A DNA stretch of 64,000 nt, taken from the NCBI RefSeq assembly GCF_044324875.1, contig NZ_CP172185.1, one strand, 5' to 3'. The notes beneath the pieces are model-generated. The model ran no database searches. It had not been told where the DNA came from and saw only the letters and a program-made list of their open reading frames with translations. Positions 31,154 through 37,535 of the stretch are shown here, one piece after another. The first letter of the stretch is position 1. Each line of letters begins with the position of its first letter. The position numbers and the translations under genes are program-made. The DNA is from Escherichia coli (GTDB lineage Bacteria > Pseudomonadota > Gammaproteobacteria > Enterobacterales > Enterobacteriaceae).

Positions 31154-32158
31154 TTACTGGTCGATGGACAGTTTATGGACACTTTCAGCCAGCGGATTAA
31201 AGCTGATCGCATCCTGTAAAAAGTCCGGTGAAAAATGCGCATACGTCATCGTTTGCTGAATCGTGGCGTGACCCAGGATCCTCTGCAACGTGACGATGTT
31301 CCCGCCGTTCATCATGAAATGCGTGGCGAACGTGTGCCGCATGACATGCGTGGCCTGCCCTTTGGGTAAGTCGGGCTTCACCTCCTGAAGGATCTCCCTG
31401 AAACTGAGATAATCAACCTGATATAACAGGCCGGTCCGGCGGGTTTTAATTAACGGCACAACGGAATCAGCTACAGGAACCGAGCGCGATTTCCCGTTCT
31501 TTGTGTTAAAGAACGTCACCCTGTTACCCACGATGTGTTCCCCGCGAAGCGTTGACGCCTCTTTCCATCTGGCCCCGGTCGAAAGGCACAGAATGGCAAT
31601 GCGTCGTGCATCACCCTCAAGCCGTTTCAGAAGGCGATCAATCTCGTCATCTGAAAGAAAGGCCATTTCTGTATTCTGAACCTTGAGTTTACGTATTCCG
31701 CGCACAGGGTTTTCGTTATGATAAACCTCCGCGTCAATTAACAACGAAAACATCGCAGATAAGGCGCACAGGTCGCGATTGATACTGGACGGCATCAGTC
31801 CCGCCTGCAACTTATCCGAGCGATACTCAATCACGAATTTTCGTGTCATCTGGCTGGCGCGCGGGTCCCCCATTTCACGTATCACCTTCTCCAGTCTGGT
31901 TCTGTAGGTATCACCATATGCCTGATTACGACCATCAAGCATCCACCACACCTCAATCAGTTCTGATAACCGCCGTTGATCGGCGGGCCTTGCCTGCCAC
32001 GGGTTATTGTGGAAATTCTGAAGAACGTATCTTTCGAATTCCTGCGCCTTTGATTTCAGGGTGAAAATCTTACGAATCCGCCTTCCTCCCGCCCCCTGAG
32101 GCCTTACATCAACCTGATAACGTCCGTCTTTGAGTTGCTTAATCGACATGATCAGCAC
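31154..32158 (-). CDS. int: Phage tyrosine integrase (P2 Int-like)
   Basis: 334 aa; conserved ILCLSTGARW...ATHVMRHTFATHFMMNGG...LQRILGH...YAHF (R, H-x-x-R, Y catalytic residues). Confidence 0.93.
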   Translation of the reverse strand: MLIMSIKQLKDGRYQVDVRPQGAGGRRIRKIFTLKSKAQEFERYVLQNFHNNPWQARPADQRRLSELIEVWWMLDGRNQAYGDTYRTRLEKVIREMGDPRASQMTRKFVIEYRSDKLQAGLMPSSINRDLCALSAMFSLLIDAEVYHNENPVRGIRKLKVQNTEMAFLSDDEIDRLLKRLEGDARRIAILCLSTGARWKEASTLRGEHIVGNRVTFFNTKNGKSRSVPVADSVVPLIKTRRTGLLYQVDYLSFREILQEVKPDLPKGQATHVMRHTFATHFMMNGGNIVTLQRILGHATIQQTMTYAHFSPDFLQDAISFNPLAESVHKLSIDQ

Positions 32159-32218
32159 CTCCGACGGATAAACCTGTTAACCCCTGCTTACTGAACGCCG
32201 CCCGTTCAATATACAGCG

Positions 32219-32560
32219 TCAGCCAGCATTGCGGCCTGATTGGGGTGATTTTTGGGTATTGCGGGTTGAAACCTGATCGTCCTCCGACTGCGTGGAGCCA
32301 TCAAGAGAGAGAGCCGGGGCGATCTGACCGGCAACAGGTAGCGTCTTATCTTTGATTAGCCAGAACATATATTTTTCAAACCGATCCACTTGAAGGACGG
32401 CCTCAACAATCTTTGCTCTGGCGATCTTTTGCCCTGACTCATAATTCCTGACAGTTGCCAGAGATAACCCTGTAATATCAGCAAATTGCTTTTGAGTTAG
32501 CCCTTCCGTCTTGCGTATCAAACGCAACTTTTTCGCATAGTCTATTGACAAGATACTCAT
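32219..32560 (-). CDS. Phage immunity repressor (P2 C-like, XRE-type HTH)
   Basis: 113 aa; HTH LTQKQFADITGLSLATVRNYESG; position between int and divergent early operon. Confidence 0.8.
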   Translation of the reverse strand: MSILSIDYAKKLRLIRKTEGLTQKQFADITGLSLATVRNYESGQKIARAKIVEAVLQVDRFEKYMFWLIKDKTLPVAGQIAPALSLDGSTQSEDDQVSTRNTQKSPQSGRNAG

Positions 32561-32663
32561 TTGGGGATTAATCTCCTACAAAAGATAACCGTACGATTAT
32601 CTTTACAAGTCATCAAAAATCATCAAAAGGCGCAACAAGCGCACCAATGCAAGAGGATAACAA

Positions 32664-33185
32664 ATGCGGGAGATTATTGCCGACAAAGAGTTATCTGGCG
32701 CTCAACCGGTTCAGGATGATGGCGCGGACAATGAATTCATTGAAGCTGCCAACGACAACGAACACCTGGAAACCAAAACCAGACCGTCCTACAAAAAGGG
32801 CGCAACCCTACGACTGGACGGCCCAGTCGCAGGACTTGTGTCACTGGAAAAAGGGGCTGCCTATCTGGGGGTAACAAAATCTGCGCTACGCGCCGCCATT
32901 CAGCGCGGGCAGATGCCGGGTCACAAAACGCGCTCAAATCCCGAAGATGAAAAGTCAGACGGTACATGGTGGTTTAACGCCAAAGCCTGGGACGAACTAG
33001 CCGACGAACTACTGGAGTGCGAACCGCCAGAGTGGCACAACTGGAAAAGCTACTGGACGTACGACCGCAAGAAAAGAAAGTTTTCACCGGCAAACAAGGA
33101 GGACTGCCAGACCGTTAAAGGTAAGCAGGTTTACTCCCCCAGAGTTTCAAAACTGGAGCAACTCAAAAACAACCAGCCCGGCTAA
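32664..33185 (+). CDS. Cox/excisionase-like early protein (173 aa)
   Basis: AGAGGA SD 7 nt upstream; central HTH-like AYLGVTKSALRAAIQRGQMP; first gene of rightward early operon. Confidence 0.55.
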   Translation: MREIIADKELSGAQPVQDDGADNEFIEAANDNEHLETKTRPSYKKGATLRLDGPVAGLVSLEKGAAYLGVTKSALRAAIQRGQMPGHKTRSNPEDEKSDGTWWFNAKAWDELADELLECEPPEWHNWKSYWTYDRKKRKFSPANKEDCQTVKGKQVYSPRVSKLEQLKNNQPG

Positions 33186-33193
33186 ACACGAAA

Positions 33194-33400
33194 ATGACCA
33201 GCAATATCATCAATGCCGTTTTGAACATTATATTCCTGGAATTAGGCGTAGTAGTGATTTATCTGCTTGGCAAGCTAACAGGACAAAAAGAACGTTTTAT
33301 TGTCCTCAACGTTCATTACGTCGCAGCTTATTCTAAAGGGCTTTTTCCAATAGTTGTTGGCGCGGGACTTACAGCGTTTGTCATCTGGCTCATCAGGTAG
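33194..33400 (+). CDS. Small hydrophobic protein (68 aa, two predicted TM segments)
   Basis: ORF directly following cox-like gene; weak RBS. Confidence 0.4.
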   Translation: MTSNIINAVLNIIFLELGVVVIYLLGKLTGQKERFIVLNVHYVAAYSKGLFPIVVGAGLTAFVIWLIR

Positions 33401-33682
33401 AGGCACACAACGTAATCATTCGTAGCTATATTTCCGCAATAGTATTCAAGTAAAGGAAGACAACAACATGAAACCAAGACAAAGATTAACCTCCAGAAGT
33501 AGTGACGCATTGCACTTTAAAGCAAAAGACATAATAGCCACAACAAAGGTAGGAGCATAAGTCTATATACACTTTCAGAATTTCTATCTGGAGAGAACAT
33601 TAAAAACGGAAGAGGAAGCCAATGAGTATTTGTTATTCATGAAAGATTGCATAGAAGGAAAAATAAGCGCAGGAGATAAATA

Positions 33683-33991
33683 ATGCGAAAACATTATTCA
33701 CAGCCACATTTCCGCAACAGTGCACCACGCAGCAATAACCGCTGGAGCCTGCGCGAAACACACGCAACGCCGGGCGGTCATGCTGTAAAACAGACTGGTC
33801 AACACACCTGGCTGATTGAGCAGGCCGGACTCGTGATCCACAGATGCCACCGCAATCCGTTTACCGGAAACCGCATTTTTGCACTGAGCAGCGGCGACAA
33901 TCAGTTCGGACAGGATTTCACACTGCACGAAGCCTTGCGAACTGCCGACCGCTTAATCGAGGGGCGCAGCTTTCAGCATACCGACTACTAA
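33683..33991 (+). CDS. Hypothetical phage early protein (102 aa)
   Basis: AGGAG SD upstream of ATG. Confidence 0.45.
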   Translation: MRKHYSQPHFRNSAPRSNNRWSLRETHATPGGHAVKQTGQHTWLIEQAGLVIHRCHRNPFTGNRIFALSSGDNQFGQDFTLHEALRTADRLIEGRSFQHTDY

Positions 33992-34029
33992 GGCAAAAGG
34001 AGTCTTAATAAGACAGAAGAGGCAGCAAG

Positions 34030-34272
34030 ATGAAAAGAGCCTATAAAGAACTCATTAACGACGCGCTTCAGAATTACCATTACGGACTTACAAGCCGTGG
34101 CACTAACGGTGACGCTGTTTCACTTGCAGCACTGACTACAGCAATCAAGGGCCTGACCTGTTGCGCCTTTGGTTCCGGAGATAATGAAGCTCTGACGGAA
34201 TTACAGGCCATTAATAAAGACCTGTCTGAAGGAAACGTAATAACCCCCTTTGTAATTCAGGAGGAAGCATGA
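34030..34272 (+). CDS. Hypothetical phage early protein (80 aa)
   Basis: ORF with plausible RBS; stop overlaps next start (ATGA). Confidence 0.5.
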   Translation: MKRAYKELINDALQNYHYGLTSRGTNGDAVSLAALTTAIKGLTCCAFGSGDNEALTELQAINKDLSEGNVITPFVIQEEA

Positions 34273-34394
34273 GCGTATTTATGTCATGGTTAATTCTTAT
34301 CCTTGCCATTATTTGCGCTGTGGGGATTATGCGGGTAATTAACAGCATTAACACCATTGAATCGTTATTTACTGGCGATAAGCGCCGTAAATAA
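34269..34394 (+). CDS. Small membrane peptide (41 aa), translationally coupled
   Basis: AGGAGG SD, ATGA overlap with upstream ORF; MSVFMSWLILILAIICAVGIMRVI hydrophobic helix; below ORF-track size cutoff. Confidence 0.45.
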   Translation: MSVFMSWLILILAIICAVGIMRVINSINTIESLFTGDKRRK

Positions 34395-34474
34395 ACAGGC
34401 GTTTAACACCAGAAACAACCAGAAACATCCGCTCACGCGGAGGGGTTGACCCGCTCAAAAAGGAGAAATCAGGA

Positions 34475-34768
34475 ATGCTTAATAATAAAAAAAACCGAAT
34501 CATTGATAACAGTGAACAGGTCAACAAAATAATCGAAGGCACAAACAAATTAATTAAGAAAAAAAACAAACTAAGCCGTGAATTAATGGAACATCCGGAA
34601 GAAATATTATTAGCCATGATGCACCAGACAGAAGCGATAGCCATCGCCCTTGCCGTGCAGGCGCTTTCTGAGTTCCGGGAAGAAAACATCAGGCTGGCTC
34701 AGGAGCTGAAAAACCTCAGACGTCAGCTTCAGAGCACTGAGGCTGGCACGTCATCACGAATACACTGA
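34475..34768 (+). CDS. Hypothetical Lys-rich protein (97 aa) in AT-rich island
   Basis: AAGGAG SD; AT-rich codon usage unlike flanking phage DNA. Confidence 0.55.
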   Translation: MLNNKKNRIIDNSEQVNKIIEGTNKLIKKKNKLSRELMEHPEEILLAMMHQTEAIAIALAVQALSEFREENIRLAQELKNLRRQLQSTEAGTSSRIH

Positions 34769-34778
34769 GGGCCACACC

Positions 34779-34988
34779 ATGACTGCAATTCTGAGAAGAC
34801 GCAATAAAACGCTTTTTACCGATACATCCGGGATGGAATACGAAGTGGAAAGCAGTGTCATCGCCACCACCACCCGATGCCCGGCAGGTGACGAACTGAT
34901 TTACGTCCACCTGACGGACGGGTCACAGATAACCGTCCTGACAGAGTCATGGCGCGAACTCGAGATAATAAGCGAGGTAAGAACATGA
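34779..34988 (+). CDS. Hypothetical phage early protein (69 aa)
   Basis: GAGGG SD; compact spacing. Confidence 0.5.
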   Translation: MTAILRRRNKTLFTDTSGMEYEVESSVIATTTRCPAGDELIYVHLTDGSQITVLTESWRELEIISEVRT

Positions 34989-35197
34989 GCAGCAAACACG
35001 ATACCAACGCACGCAGACCAGGCAAAGAGGCGCGTCACCATATCGCCGTAATGCGCAACCTGCTTATGAGTGAAATCGACGATTTTGTGGCAGGCCTGGG
35101 GCAACCGGGCGAACCAGCAACACCAGGCCAGATACACAGGGAATTACGCCGCCGCGTGGAAAACGTCGTGGATTACGTCATAAACCCGAACGACTGA
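34985..35197 (+). CDS. Hypothetical phage early protein (70 aa)
   Basis: ATG overlapping previous stop; GAGGT SD. Confidence 0.5.
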   Translation: MSSKHDTNARRPGKEARHHIAVMRNLLMSEIDDFVAGLGQPGEPATPGQIHRELRRRVENVVDYVINPND

Positions 35198-35236
35198 CGG
35201 GAACATGGCGAGCGTCAGATGACACACGCAGGGCAC

Positions 35237-35719
35237 TTATCGGGAAAAACCGATCGTAATGGCAGCCATCATCTTTTCAGCGAAAGAGAGAGATTCACGA
35301 TGACTGATATTCAGAGACATACAGGCTTTGTTGTACGCCACATTTTCCATGCATTCCAGGACAGGAGAGTCATGCATCTCAAGCTCTGGAAGGCGTGCCA
35401 GCAGAGCTTCCGTACTGAGGAGGGCGCTTTTGGTAATCAACTCATTGTAGCGATGGGCATGCTCACTCGCCGCCTGCGCACGTTGCCCGAAACGACATAT
35501 GAAATTACAGGCTCCGAGAACCACCACCACTGCCCCAAGCACCCAGCCGAAATGCCAGCCGGCTACGATGAACGCACCCGCCGCAAGGATCAAAATGTTG
35601 ATGATCGCATCAAGGCGACGATTGAATACCGCCGCGATGCGCTCCAGCCAGTAGCTGTACCAGAGACGGAACATGACCTCATCCCGTTCTCTCGATTTTT
35701 TACGTTGGTTGTTTTGCAT
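35237..35719 (-). CDS. Membrane protein (160 aa, central double TM hairpin), opposite strand to early operon
   Basis: GAGGGA SD before ATG; hydrophobic stretch INILILAAGAFIVAGWHFGWVLGAVVVVLGACNFI; more protein-like than the overlapping plus-strand ORF. Confidence 0.55.
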   Translation of the reverse strand: MQNNQRKKSRERDEVMFRLWYSYWLERIAAVFNRRLDAIINILILAAGAFIVAGWHFGWVLGAVVVVLGACNFICRFGQRAQAASEHAHRYNELITKSALLSTEALLARLPELEMHDSPVLECMENVAYNKACMSLNISHRESLSFAEKMMAAITIGFSR

Positions 35720-35953
35720 GGTGTTTTATCCCTCATCGTCATCGCTCTGCCCCTAATCAGCGCAGAGTGCAGGGTAACCTGGCTCGTGGAATTTTTGCAG
35801 CCAGACATCTTTACCCCCGGGCGTGTTGAACAAAGTGTCCGCCAGATCCACTGAACGGCGGATTCATCAATGCTAACACGCCCTTCTTTTCCGGTTGAAG
35901 GCGAAAAAACCGGACCATTACCCCGACACAAAACAGAACAACGGAGAACAACT

Positions 35954-36508
35954 ATGCCCGCACTTAAACCTATGGGTGTATCAGGTGTACCACCGAAGCA
36001 TGTCAGAGCCTGGACACAACAGGAAGATGCTCTACTGGTCGGTTTATACCCCTCCCACACCGTACCAGAACTGACAAAACACTTTCAGAGAACCGGGCCA
36101 GCAATACGAAGCCGCATCCGTCTTTTGCTCTCTCAGGGGGTTATCCACACCAAACAACCCCCCCTGAATACAAAAGAACTCAACACGCTCATCAGGAATC
36201 GCCACACAAAAACCATCCGGGAACTCGCGAATGAACTGGGGCGCTCGACATCCACGGTGGGACTGAACCTGAGAAAAAGAGGGTACCGGTTCAGGAAATA
36301 CGGGGAACTCCACCACAGAGCCAGATACAGCGATCACCTGGTGGAGTTGGTAACTGAACTGCGCGATGAACAGGGGATGACATTCAGCGAAATCAGAAAG
36401 TACATCCGGGACATGGCCGGGATATCCCTTAAAAGATGGGTCCTCGCCCGGCTTTACGCACGATATACCGCCGCTGACACCGTGCTTTGCGAACTGCTAC
36501 CGGACTGA
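35954..36508 (+). CDS. DNA-binding protein with repeated Myb/HTH-like units (~184 aa)
   Basis: Start at ATG with GGAGA SD (MPALKPMG); repeats resembling W-T-x-x-E-D-x-x-L Myb/SANT pattern. Confidence 0.5.
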   Translation: MPALKPMGVSGVPPKHVRAWTQQEDALLVGLYPSHTVPELTKHFQRTGPAIRSRIRLLLSQGVIHTKQPPLNTKELNTLIRNRHTKTIRELANELGRSTSTVGLNLRKRGYRFRKYGELHHRARYSDHLVELVTELRDEQGMTFSEIRKYIRDMAGISLKRWVLARLYARYTAADTVLCELLPD

Positions 36509-36606
36509 GTAACCACTATGCACACACAAAAAAACCGCTTGCCATGCCGCAATCAGTCAGGTTACATTTCCGCTGCACCTCATAAAACGGGTGCCGGGAT
36601 TGCAAC

Positions 36607-36648
36607 CCCCGCTGACAACTACAGCGCACAACCGCGCCAGCGGTTTTT
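36607..36648 (+). terminator. Candidate rho-independent terminator
   Basis: CCGCTG...CAGCGG hairpin followed by T7. Confidence 0.45.
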
Positions 36649-36828
36649 TTGTGCGTACCGTATCGCCACGTCTTTTTCGCGCCAGAATTATGGCGGGGCG
36701 TATGGGGCCGACTTCGGTCGGGCCGGTTTCTGTAGTTGCCGGTGGTTGCAACCCTGTACGTCTCGCCACCCAGAATTGCAACCTCTGGATGGTGAGTTTT
36801 CAAAACTTGCAACTACAGAGGCCACACC

Positions 36829-37053
36829 ATGGCAAACCGCAAACAACAGCGCGCATACGCTGCGCGTCGTCACATCCAGACTGAAATCAACCGCAGACTT
36901 TTCCGCGCATTCCGCGTCGCGCATATCATGCACATCAATATGCTGCATGAGCGCAGCCACGCACTGTCAAACATGTATTCCGCCGCTGTATTCAGCTACC
37001 TGGCGGATGACCTGCGCGAGCTGCAGGACCTCATTAACCAGCACCACCACTAA
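36829..37053 (+). CDS. Hypothetical small basic protein (74 aa)
   Basis: ATG preceded by AGAGG; preferred over overlapping low-complexity 205-aa ORF. Confidence 0.4.
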   Translation: MANRKQQRAYAARRHIQTEINRRLFRAFRVAHIMHINMLHERSHALSNMYSAAVFSYLADDLRELQDLINQHHH

Positions 37054-37121
37054 TCAACATCCCGGAGCCATCCCGCCCCCGTACGCGGGAGGCTTCCGCA
37101 CGTCCGTTTCCGGAGGTTCTC

Positions 37122-37535
37122 ATGAAGAGCGTTAAGGGACTTTCAGATATTCAGGATTTTTTTAACTGGATGTGGGCGGTGGATCCACGCCTCGCTTCCC
37201 GTCTCAATGACCTGCACGACTATTACCGCCGCGCCTGTAAACAGGCAGCCCGCAGCGCTGCCACATACGGGGATTTTTCCTTCACCGTTGACGACCGTTA
37301 CCGCGTGGATGTCAGAGACCAGAACCACAGCCTGGAGCTGGGCCTGTTCCACATCAACGGGTGCGACAGCAGCGTTATCAGCTGGTCATCGTCAGAAATG
37401 GTGCTCGTTCTGGAAATGACCACCCACAGCGTGGTCGTGAAAGGGATTAAAACAGCAGAAGACTTTATCGCTGAATACCAGCGCCTTCTTGTGCTGTACC
37501 GGGCTGCATTTCAGAAGGCAACAGCAGGGGAGTAA
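37122..37535 (+). CDS. Hypothetical phage protein (137 aa) immediately upstream of gene A
   Basis: GGAGG SD; tight spacing to replication gene. Confidence 0.55.
   Translation: MKSVKGLSDIQDFFNWMWAVDPRLASRLNDLHDYYRRACKQAARSAATYGDFSFTVDDRYRVDVRDQNHSLELGLFHINGCDSSVISWSSSEMVLVLEMTTHSVVVKGIKTAEDFIAEYQRLLVLYRAAFQKATAGE

Follow-up and report, generated by a model that had tools for sequence, protein, structure and literature searches.

The small genes that temperate phages express early are recognised as a source of host-directed factors. In phage 186, two genes of the early lytic operon, annotated between the Cox/Apl switch gene and gene A, are small (66-75 aa) and non-essential: fil encodes a cell-division inhibitor and dhr an inhibitor of host replication. 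The corresponding cox-to-A interval of P2 holds orf78 and orf80-83, tightly packed with overlapping stops and starts, together with replication gene B. Homologues of fil and dhr also occur in SEN5 and phiT5282H, where a short DUF4761 gene immediately precedes them. DUF4761 is also present in P88 (Xuanwuvirus, Peduoviridae), whose genes come in the order of an integrase, a repressor, Cox, DUF4761, DUF4754, a peptide, small genes and a replication endonuclease. Type I toxin peptides such as Hok, TisB and Ldr, like other small membrane proteins of phages, measure ~40 aa and combine one hydrophobic helix with a charged tail.

Here we describe a block of small genes within a 64,000-nt window of Escherichia coli DNA (contig NZ_CP172185.1; "the window" denotes this whole stretch), which from position 31154 onward is a P88-like (P2-family) prophage adjoining dmsA. 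The block resembles P88 in the gene series listed above, and P2 in its cox-to-A position, the size class of its genes and their packing, but it shows no homology to the P2 genes and lacks the gene B that P2 carries there. In parts it is 80-90% identical at the nucleotide level to P88-like phages, some of which share the dmsA-adjoining attachment site. Unlike these phages, the lineage studied here has neither the 92-aa gene between DUF4761 and DUF4754 nor the MarR-like gene, and instead carries orf68, a dead orf71 and orf97.

Gene content and layout of the block

The prophage genes follow the order integrase, HTH repressor, Cox, small-gene block and replication endonuclease (gene A type). According to the ORFs and the RefSeq annotation, integrase and repressor are transcribed leftward, a Cox-family gene heads the rightward operon and the endonuclease lies further 3′, which is the divergent switch layout of P2-family (Peduoviridae) early operons, as in P2 and 186. 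Context and annotation thus bear out the sequence-only reading of this DNA, which had recognised a block of small early-operon genes in a temperate P2-like phage. That reading had also counted seven rightward ORFs with good ribosome-binding sites after the cox-like gene. All seven are real, coinciding with RefSeq CDSs in 100%-identical E. coli genomes (Table 1), but the start of the last one had been misplaced at 34949. We prefer 34985 because of its Shine–Dalgarno (SD) duplex (−9.8 versus −2.4 kcal/mol), its ATGA overlap with the orf69 stop and the alignment of the orthologue in the relative L005 from residue 1. SD duplexes were indeed good for six genes (−5.8 to −10.3 kcal/mol) but weak for orf68 (−1.7 kcal/mol), which starts 8 nt past the cox stop.

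Starts and stops of block genes overlap by 1 or 4 nt, as TAATG once and as ATGA twice, the orf69-orf70 junction being the second translational coupling. No plus-strand terminator was predicted inside the block, the sole plus-strand terminator-like site lying upstream at 32511. Promoter-like sites in the block were at chance level (6 versus 4.6 in shuffles, from a consensus scan that counts as weak evidence), and an Rfam scan of 32000-37500 gave no match inside it, only isrK and C4 further downstream. The whole block would be transcribed from the early promoter, upon infection or induction, into one polycistronic mRNA.

Gene maps of 87 DUF4761-anchored loci revealed core genes mixed with exchangeable cassettes, whose breakpoints we mapped against the relatives L003, L004, L005 and L006. 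The core of the P88-like group comprises DUF4761, DUF4754, p41, an orf69-like gene and an orf70-like gene; orf68, orf71 and orf97 are exchangeable. The block described here maps as core genes (DUF4761, and DUF4754 with p41), swappable cargo (orf68, orf97) and a dead orf71. It is the accessory part of a P88-like early operon, a case of ordinary phage mosaicism and not a new system, and it leaves the current understanding of phage biology unchanged. Since P88-like prophages occur in about one in six complete E. coli genomes (∼950 of 5426 match part of the block), the DUF4761/DUF4754/p41 trio forms a common, conserved and wholly uncharacterised set.

Table 1. Features of the small-gene block and the adjoining Cox-family gene (positions in the window)
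Feature	Coordinates	Strand	Description
Cox-family gene	32664-33185	+	Pfam Phage_Cox, E 1.5e-8
orf68	33194-33400	+	68-aa small membrane protein, two hydrophobic segments; RefSeq CDS WP_029399966
pseudo-orf71	33468-33683	+	71-codon gene with in-frame TAA at codon 31 (33558-33560)
DUF4761 protein	33683-33991	+	102 aa, core gene of P88-like early operons
DUF4754 protein	34030-34272	+	80 aa, acidic, all-helical, core gene; phrog_2549
p41	34269-34394	+	41-aa single-pass membrane peptide; RefSeq CDS WP_024211217
Hairpin	34428-34441		5 bp, TCCGC-N4-GCGGA, 34 nt past the p41 stop
orf97	34475-34768	+	97 aa, lineage-specific; 5′ half is AT-rich island 2
orf69	34779-34988	+	69-aa acidic protein; RefSeq CDS WP_000125224
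orf70	34985-35197	+	70 aa; RefSeq CDS WP_000095507

Coding conservation of the block genes

Both DUF proteins belong to their Pfam families well within the gathering threshold, which is 27 bits in either case: DUF4761 (PF15958) scored 158.9 bits (E 4.7e-47, profile positions 10-100 of 105) and DUF4754 (PF15946) 41.1 bits (E 2.2e-10, positions 1-75 of 80). The DUF4761 protein is basic (pI 10.4), with a disordered N-terminus, five beta strands and a C-terminal helix. Some block products, such as this basic protein, may have a part in phage regulation or replication, a possibility that counts against the modulator role discussed below.

Among the remaining genes, orf68 matched phrog_14475 (E 3.7e-25), a family of unknown function, and has hydrophobic windows at residues 2-30 and 48-68; its homologues (74-82% nucleotide identity) lie directly 3′ of cox in ∼320 further E. 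coli genomes. The orf69 product had no Pfam match and is distantly related to the products of the 67-aa and 71-aa genes that occupy its place in relatives, with amino acid identities of 45% to L005 4000-4215 and 32% to the 67-aa family. At the end of the block, orf70 matched phrog_4144 (E 8.6e-13) over the C-terminal half of 99-aa proteins and was 81% identical in amino acids to its L005 orthologue over residues 1-70.

Across related prophages, the median dN/dS was 0.046 for DUF4754, 0.17 for DUF4761, 0.20-0.25 for p41 (range 0.10-0.28) and 0.36 for orf68 (range 0.26-0.37); orf70 gave 0.12, with a family median of 0.17. These ratios point to purifying selection on all testable block genes. Coding conservation across related prophages, against which the sequence-only reading had set its gene calls, therefore holds for five of the seven genes (dN/dS 0.05-0.36) and is weaker for orf69, for which dN/dS was 0.45 against L005, its one usable pair, and 0.087 within the distantly related 67-aa family. 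We left orf97 out of this comparison because it has no diverged relative.

A conserved ATGA overlap between the DUF4754 and p41 genes

The hydrophobic 41-aa peptide had been described in the earlier reading as coupled to the preceding ORF by an ATGA overlap, and this was upheld. The p41 ATG overlaps the TGA of the DUF4754 gene, and in the gene maps a p41 homologue was present in 82 of the 87 loci, with the ATGA overlap in all 82. The pattern recurred in 42 independently sampled DUF4754-anchored loci, where 41 combined ATGA with a peptide homologue and one had GTGA. An 80-81 aa DUF4754 homologue lay upstream of the peptide gene in 80 loci. p41 is a core gene of the P88-like group; most of its relatives are 37 aa long.

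In the main clade, the SD-like motif upstream of p41, read by eye, amounts to no more than GGGG. Ribosomes terminating on DUF4754 would restart on p41, and because of this presumed termination and restart the two proteins would be produced together. The peptide would then enter the inner membrane, which its one helix would cross so that the basic C-terminus faces the cytoplasm. As a check on a complex of the two proteins, we modelled them as a linker fusion with AlphaFold2 (pTM 0.49), which placed DUF4754 helices at residues 3-48 and 52-66 (pLDDT 83-90) and gave a pLDDT of 50-76 for the peptide, providing no usable sign of a complex. A Foldseek search of the PDB with this model returned no match with E below 0.6.

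Predicted role of the encoded proteins

Neither sequence profiles nor structure prediction nor fold search assigned a function to any block protein. When all of them were scanned against Pfam, PHROGs, NCBIfam and PADLOC, the matches were confined to DUFs and families of unknown function, with no PADLOC defence-protein match below E 0.01, and PDB sequence searches with DUF4761, DUF4754, orf97, orf70 and the DUF4754 profile found only designed helical repeats. We found no mention of the block genes in the searchable literature. In a 16-sequence database of Fil, Dhr and other P2/186 early proteins, no block protein had a match better than E ∼0.7 (phmmer --max), and homology to P2/186 orf78, B, orf80-83, cII, fil, dhr and others was rejected. 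Two particular candidates, a motif-level likeness of the orf69 family to Dhr ('..T.DG....V') and a relationship of DUF4754 to Fil, were likewise rejected (hhalign probability 0.1% each). Because of this lack of likeness to Fil, Dhr or P2/186 early proteins, the functional analogy with fil and dhr is one of position.

Taken together, we think that the block is probably an accessory, non-replicative segment of the early operon, from cox to A, in which core genes and cassettes are expressed from one mRNA, p41 is translationally coupled, and the products are dispensable modulators. By analogy, these would act on the host cell or on phage development and would be neither replication nor structural proteins, and their role may resemble that of fil and dhr at the equivalent place in 186.

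A sharper version of this idea is that the block consists of dedicated anti-defence or host-takeover factors, each inhibiting a host immune system or machine early in infection. The sequence-only reading had raised such a role, and the position of fil and dhr in 186 would suggest it. The genes are small, early and accessory, with variable slots after cox and after p41; by annotation, the corresponding place in 186 holds genes proven to be host-directed, and in SEN5 and phiT5282H the neighbours of DUF4761 are fil and dhr homologues. In the profile, PDB sequence and fold searches, however, the block proteins matched no characterised inhibitor, and the near-universal presence of DUF4761, DUF4754 and p41 under strong purifying selection would, as a general expectation, fit a fixed housekeeping role in the phage better than that of a gene in an arms race. 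We therefore regard dedicated inhibitors as possible but somewhat unlikely, and favour the broader reading of an accessory segment encoding dispensable modulators. Within the latter, DUF4754 and p41 could form a fixed two-part module, a helical soluble protein plus a membrane peptide made in step with it, by which P88-like phages would act early in infection on a target in the host inner membrane, a specific proposal that we consider speculative and unlikely to hold in this form. If true, the module would be a host-takeover device like fil and dhr in role, unrelated to them in sequence, with a target such as division, transport or a membrane-bound defence sensor.

The lineage-specific cassette orf97

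Among the 87 loci, only four carried orf97. Homology to L005, which lacks the gene, stops at 34447 and picks up again at 34841. The product is rich in Lys and Asn at its N-terminus and, judged by eye, apparently helical at its C-terminus. All full-length matches were E. coli copies at least 98% identical to it, and fragments were 94-100% identical; no relative below 94% identity was found in 5.8 billion clusters or by an exhaustive phmmer search of 1.84 billion representatives. The reading frame contains two A8 runs (34487-34494 and 34559-34566), the second of which varies: it is A7 in L012, which shifts the frame; it is longer in P0007, where the frameshift leaves 35 aa and A9 is deduced from the protein; and P0003 has a 6-nt insertion there.

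The narrow distribution, the missing diverged relatives and the frameshifted variants would be expected if orf97 were a non-functional ORF, arisen by chance or decaying, in an AT-rich insertion. Its length, however, was reached by only 10 of 5000 dinucleotide shuffles (14 of 5000 for the length of orf68), its SD sequence is strong and well spaced (AAGGAG, −8.7 kcal/mol), and the ORF fits neatly between its neighbours. It is also intact in most carrier genomes, and the homopolymer differences could be sequencing errors. On balance, we find it rather doubtful that orf97 is non-functional and treat it as one of the cassettes of the accessory segment.

Toxin-like features of p41

p41 is strongly hydrophobic (Kyte–Doolittle maximum of 2.78 over 19 residues) and ends in a charged KRRK; read by eye, neither Fil nor Dhr contains a comparable helix. 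At 37-41 aa, with a charged tail behind its one transmembrane helix, p41 recalls the Hok, TisB and Ldr peptides, and it is always encoded together with, and coupled to, the soluble acidic DUF4754 protein. One might therefore picture p41 as a peptide that damages membranes like a type I toxin or a holin and serves exclusion, abortive infection or the timing of lysis, DUF4754 being its partner or antidote; a frameshifted copy in strain GF4 would be consistent with this. While p41 is a small hydrophobic peptide as in type I toxin-antitoxin systems, neither the antisense RNA nor the separate promoter of such systems was detected (no Rfam match, and a promoter scan of weak evidential value). The gene is placed in a polycistronic early operon and not in a lysis cassette, and p41 has no family in Pfam, PHROG or NCBIfam. 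Finally, nearly all prophages carry an intact copy; this speaks against a strongly toxic peptide in lysogens, whose copy of the operon would presumably be repressed. A toxin is thus an improbable identity for p41, and we retain the coupled membrane peptide of the accessory segment.

Origin of the AT-rich islands

The sequence-only reading had noted two conspicuously AT-rich stretches, and the base composition confirmed both. Against 180-nt windows of the prophage part (mean GC 0.551, sd 0.059), GC was 0.359 for 33400-33680 (island 1, z = −3.25) and 0.331 for 34440-34620 (island 2, z = −3.72). Island 1 is made up of the orf71 copy and the 67-nt spacer 33401-33467, and island 2 is the 5′ half of orf97. 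The foreign origin suggested for them held in part: the islands are cassettes swapped or absent in the closest relatives, but no donor was found. As in morons, autonomous inserts expressed in lysogens that bring along a promoter and a terminator, the composition is atypical, but no flanking promoter or plus-strand terminator was predicted; the cassettes sit in frame with the gene packing of the operon.

Island 1 is no empty spacer but holds a 71-codon ORF with an in-frame TAA (GC 0.352), whose final stop overlaps the DUF4761 start (TAATG). It aligns without gaps to an intact 71-aa gene at the same position in L005 (3016-3231, 38% amino acid identity). Another intact copy (protein P0006, 76% amino acid identity) is present on the metagenome contigs L006 and L007, which share the gene order cox-orf68-orf71-DUF4761 with our prophage. 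The same TAA was found in L001, L008 and L088. Downstream of it, differences from L006 were spread evenly over the codon positions (10:7:7; dN/dS 1.46), in contrast to 5:2:11 for DUF4761. The orf71 copy is thus a pseudogene, inactivated by one nonsense codon. Gaps after orf68 in L004 and L011, considered as orf71 remnants, contained unrelated sequence.

That the islands are instead functional non-coding DNA (promoters, an sRNA gene or binding sites of silencer proteins) is highly improbable: enterobacterial AT-rich DNA is often bound by H-NS and often contains promoters, and island 1 is unannotated in RefSeq, but this island aligns codon for codon to intact 71-aa genes, island 2 belongs to an ORF with a strong ribosome-binding site, and the block yielded neither an Rfam match nor promoter-like sites above chance.

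Every stretch of the 33 kb of prophage with GC below 0.40 falls within 32430-34669. A small hairpin between p41 and orf97 was present in all clades, with 98.8% of cells paired and compensatory changes from C-G to U-A in two of the five pairs (6 cells), a level reached by none of 500 shuffles. It has no U-run on the plus strand; on the minus strand, a T-rich run follows, and the site was flagged as terminator-like.

The early-gene block belongs to a common P2-family prophage

From 31154 onward the window is occupied by a P2-family prophage, whose features are collected in the table below. Several complete E. coli genomes carry a 100% identical prophage adjoining dmsA, and Escherichia phage P88 and other Xuanwuvirus records share 80–90% identity with the prophage region, in parts only. 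RefSeq annotates seven CDS in the block of small early genes (33194–35197) and, beyond it, a leftward 160-aa gene, an HTH protein, a 'derepression protein' and a replication endonuclease. The block is an accessory early-gene set of a common E. coli prophage family, real but ordinary, and its families are already catalogued as DUFs and PHROGs of unknown function. Our analysis adds a nonsense-inactivated gene as the reading of the first AT-rich island, a gene entirely without relatives (orf97), a corrected start for the last gene, and the strict conservation and predicted translational coupling of DUF4754 and the 41-aa membrane peptide p41.

Features of the prophage early region
Feature	Coordinates	Direction	Remarks
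Integrase	31154–32158	leftward	
HTH repressor	32219–32560	leftward	
Cox-family gene	32664–33185	rightward	173 aa; Pfam Phage_Cox E 1.5e-8
AT-rich island 1	33401–33682		282 nt; unannotated in RefSeq
Pseudo-orf71 frame	ATG 33468 to TAA 33681–33683	+	stop overlaps DUF4761 start as TAATG
TAA at orf71 codon 31	33558–33560		
Hairpin 3′ of p41	34428–34441		TCCGC-N4-GCGGA, 5 bp
orf97	34475–34768		strong ribosome-binding site
A8 runs in orf97	34487–34494; 34559–34566		
160-aa membrane protein	35237–35719	−	flanked by rightward early genes; phrog_6315 (unknown function), E 5e-65
isrK match (Rfam)	36575–36650	+	60.1 bits, E 2e-11
C4 antisense RNA match (Rfam)	36686–36773	+	80.1 bits, E 3.8e-15; in tandem with isrK match
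74-aa gene	36829–37053		directly 3′ of isrK/C4 tandem

All seven short ORFs described in the sequence-only reading exist, but the last starts at 34985 rather than at 34949: the Shine–Dalgarno energy is −9.8 kcal/mol at the former vs −2.4 at the latter, the start overlaps the stop of the preceding orf69 as ATGA, and the alignment with the orthologue in strain 23CRST011 begins at residue 1. The good ribosome-binding sites ascribed to these genes were found for all except orf68. The genes are tightly spaced, with three stop/start overlaps; within the block no terminator-like site was predicted on the plus strand, and sites resembling promoters were no commoner than expected by chance. Every clade retains the hairpin downstream of p41, and two of its five pairs show compensatory C-G to U-A changes. 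It has no U-run on the plus strand, and the T-rich run that follows on the minus strand is terminator-like by scan.

The two AT-rich islands

The AT-rich stretches noticed earlier are confirmed as real, with a base composition that is extreme by the standards of this phage (GC 0.359 and 0.331 vs 0.551 ± 0.059); across the 33 kb that belong to the prophage, stretches with GC below 0.40 are confined to 32430–34669. Sequence comparison shows island 1 to be a dead gene inactivated by a nonsense mutation. It matches, with no gap, a 71-aa gene annotated at this position in strain 23CRST011, and its frame is interrupted in the window by the TAA at codon 31, a stop shared by three other copies of this allele. 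Searching a database with its read-through translation retrieved one intact 71-aa relative (76% identity), found on two metagenome contigs that share the order cox-orf68-orf71-DUF4761. The window is identical to these contigs up to 33554 and 82% identical beyond; in the remainder of orf71 the differences are even over codon positions (10:7:7; dN/dS 1.46), whereas the neighbouring DUF4761 gene shows a third-position bias. In other relatives unrelated sequence fills the space between orf68 and DUF4761, which marks the position after cox as a variable slot.

Island 2 is the 5′ half of orf97, a probable gene without relatives. Only 10 of 5000 dinucleotide shuffles reached the length of this ORF. 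The only hits in searches of 5.8 billion clusters (word-indexed) and 1.84 billion representatives (exhaustive phmmer) were nearly identical copies and fragments from E. coli, with no diverged relatives in either. The gene is present in 4 of 87 related loci and is inserted relative to the 23CRST011 locus, where homology ends at 34447 and restarts at 34841. Of its two A8 runs, the second is variable, with a 1-nt deletion in one copy (L012), a frameshift-truncated product in another (P0007) and a 6-nt insertion in a third (P0003). These length differences could reflect slippage-driven on/off variation, or else assembly error.

DUF4754 and p41 form a conserved pair

The ATGA overlap reported between the 41-aa ORF and the preceding gene is present in the sequence, and its recurrence shows DUF4754 and p41 to be a strictly conserved pair, probably coupled in translation. 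We gathered two independent sets of viral contigs, 80 with DUF4761 as anchor and 42 with DUF4754. In the first set, a DUF4754-type ORF (mostly 80–81 aa) ends at the peptide start in 80 loci, and a p41 homologue is found in 82 of 87 loci, every one with the ATGA overlap; in the second, ATGA precedes a hydrophobic peptide that is homologous in 41 of 42 loci, the remaining one having GTGA. Most p41 relatives are 37 aa long (MSIFISWLVLIISVVCAIGIMRIIHSVKKIERFFTGE). By reading of the sequence, the Shine–Dalgarno-like motif upstream of the peptide in this clade is GGGG only, which would fit initiation by termination-reinitiation.

Median pairwise dN/dS was 0.046 for DUF4754, 0.165 for DUF4761, 0.20–0.25 for p41, 0.087 for a 67-aa family distantly related to orf69, 0.17 for orf70-like genes and 0.36 for orf68, and window-specific pairs gave similar values. 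Given these low values, the coding conservation across related prophages on which the sequence-only reading had staked its case holds for the testable genes, weakly so for orf69 itself (0.45).

Two sporadic inactivations of block genes were seen in resident prophages: in E. coli strain F11 (NZ_CP184143) an IS5-family transposase splits an otherwise identical block, and in strain GF4 (L088, 1328–1386) p41 is unannotated and has both a Gly-to-Glu substitution and a deletion of 1 nt.

Relation to known early genes

Profile searches matched no block protein to a family of known function, a sequence search of solved structures gave no match, and none of the papers covered by a literature search mentioned the block's families or accessions. 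A linker-fusion model predicted a helical DUF4754 and a single long helix for p41; its output held no evidence of contacts between them, and a fold search with it found nothing.

Small non-essential genes occupy the same place in P2 and 186; those of 186 include two whose record annotations read 'overexpression blocks cell division' (fil) and 'inhibits host DNA replication' (dhr). Homologues of fil and dhr in SEN5 and phiT5282H are immediately preceded by a short DUF4761 gene. Neither direct nor profile comparison revealed homology of the block genes to P2 or 186 early proteins, and membership in the fil/dhr families was rejected on the same comparisons. The likeness to host-takeover genes is therefore one of position alone, and a similar action of the block genes would be an inference by analogy. 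For the host-takeover or anti-defence role suggested in the sequence-only reading, the analysis yielded neither support nor contrary evidence.

Other features of the early region

The Cox-family protein is about twice as long as P2 Cox (91 aa), an acidic extension of ∼55 residues preceding the Cox domain (Pfam match residues 56–129); its relatives have either the long form or one of 93–95 aa. Just 6 of the 87 related loci have a homologue of the 160-aa membrane protein, which shows a weak, sub-threshold SLATT_1 match (E 0.006; 16.5 bits vs a cut-off of 41). Because SLATT domains are two-helix membrane effectors belonging to defence systems, this gene could be lysogen-expressed cargo. The 74-aa gene is 'hypothetical' in RefSeq here, and its homologues in relatives are annotated as 'derepression protein'. 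Together with the isrK/C4 tandem it forms what we take to resemble an antirepressor module under antisense control, of the P1 immI type, set within a P2-like early region. Of the 87 related loci, 40 have an ORF of a family that overlaps this stretch.
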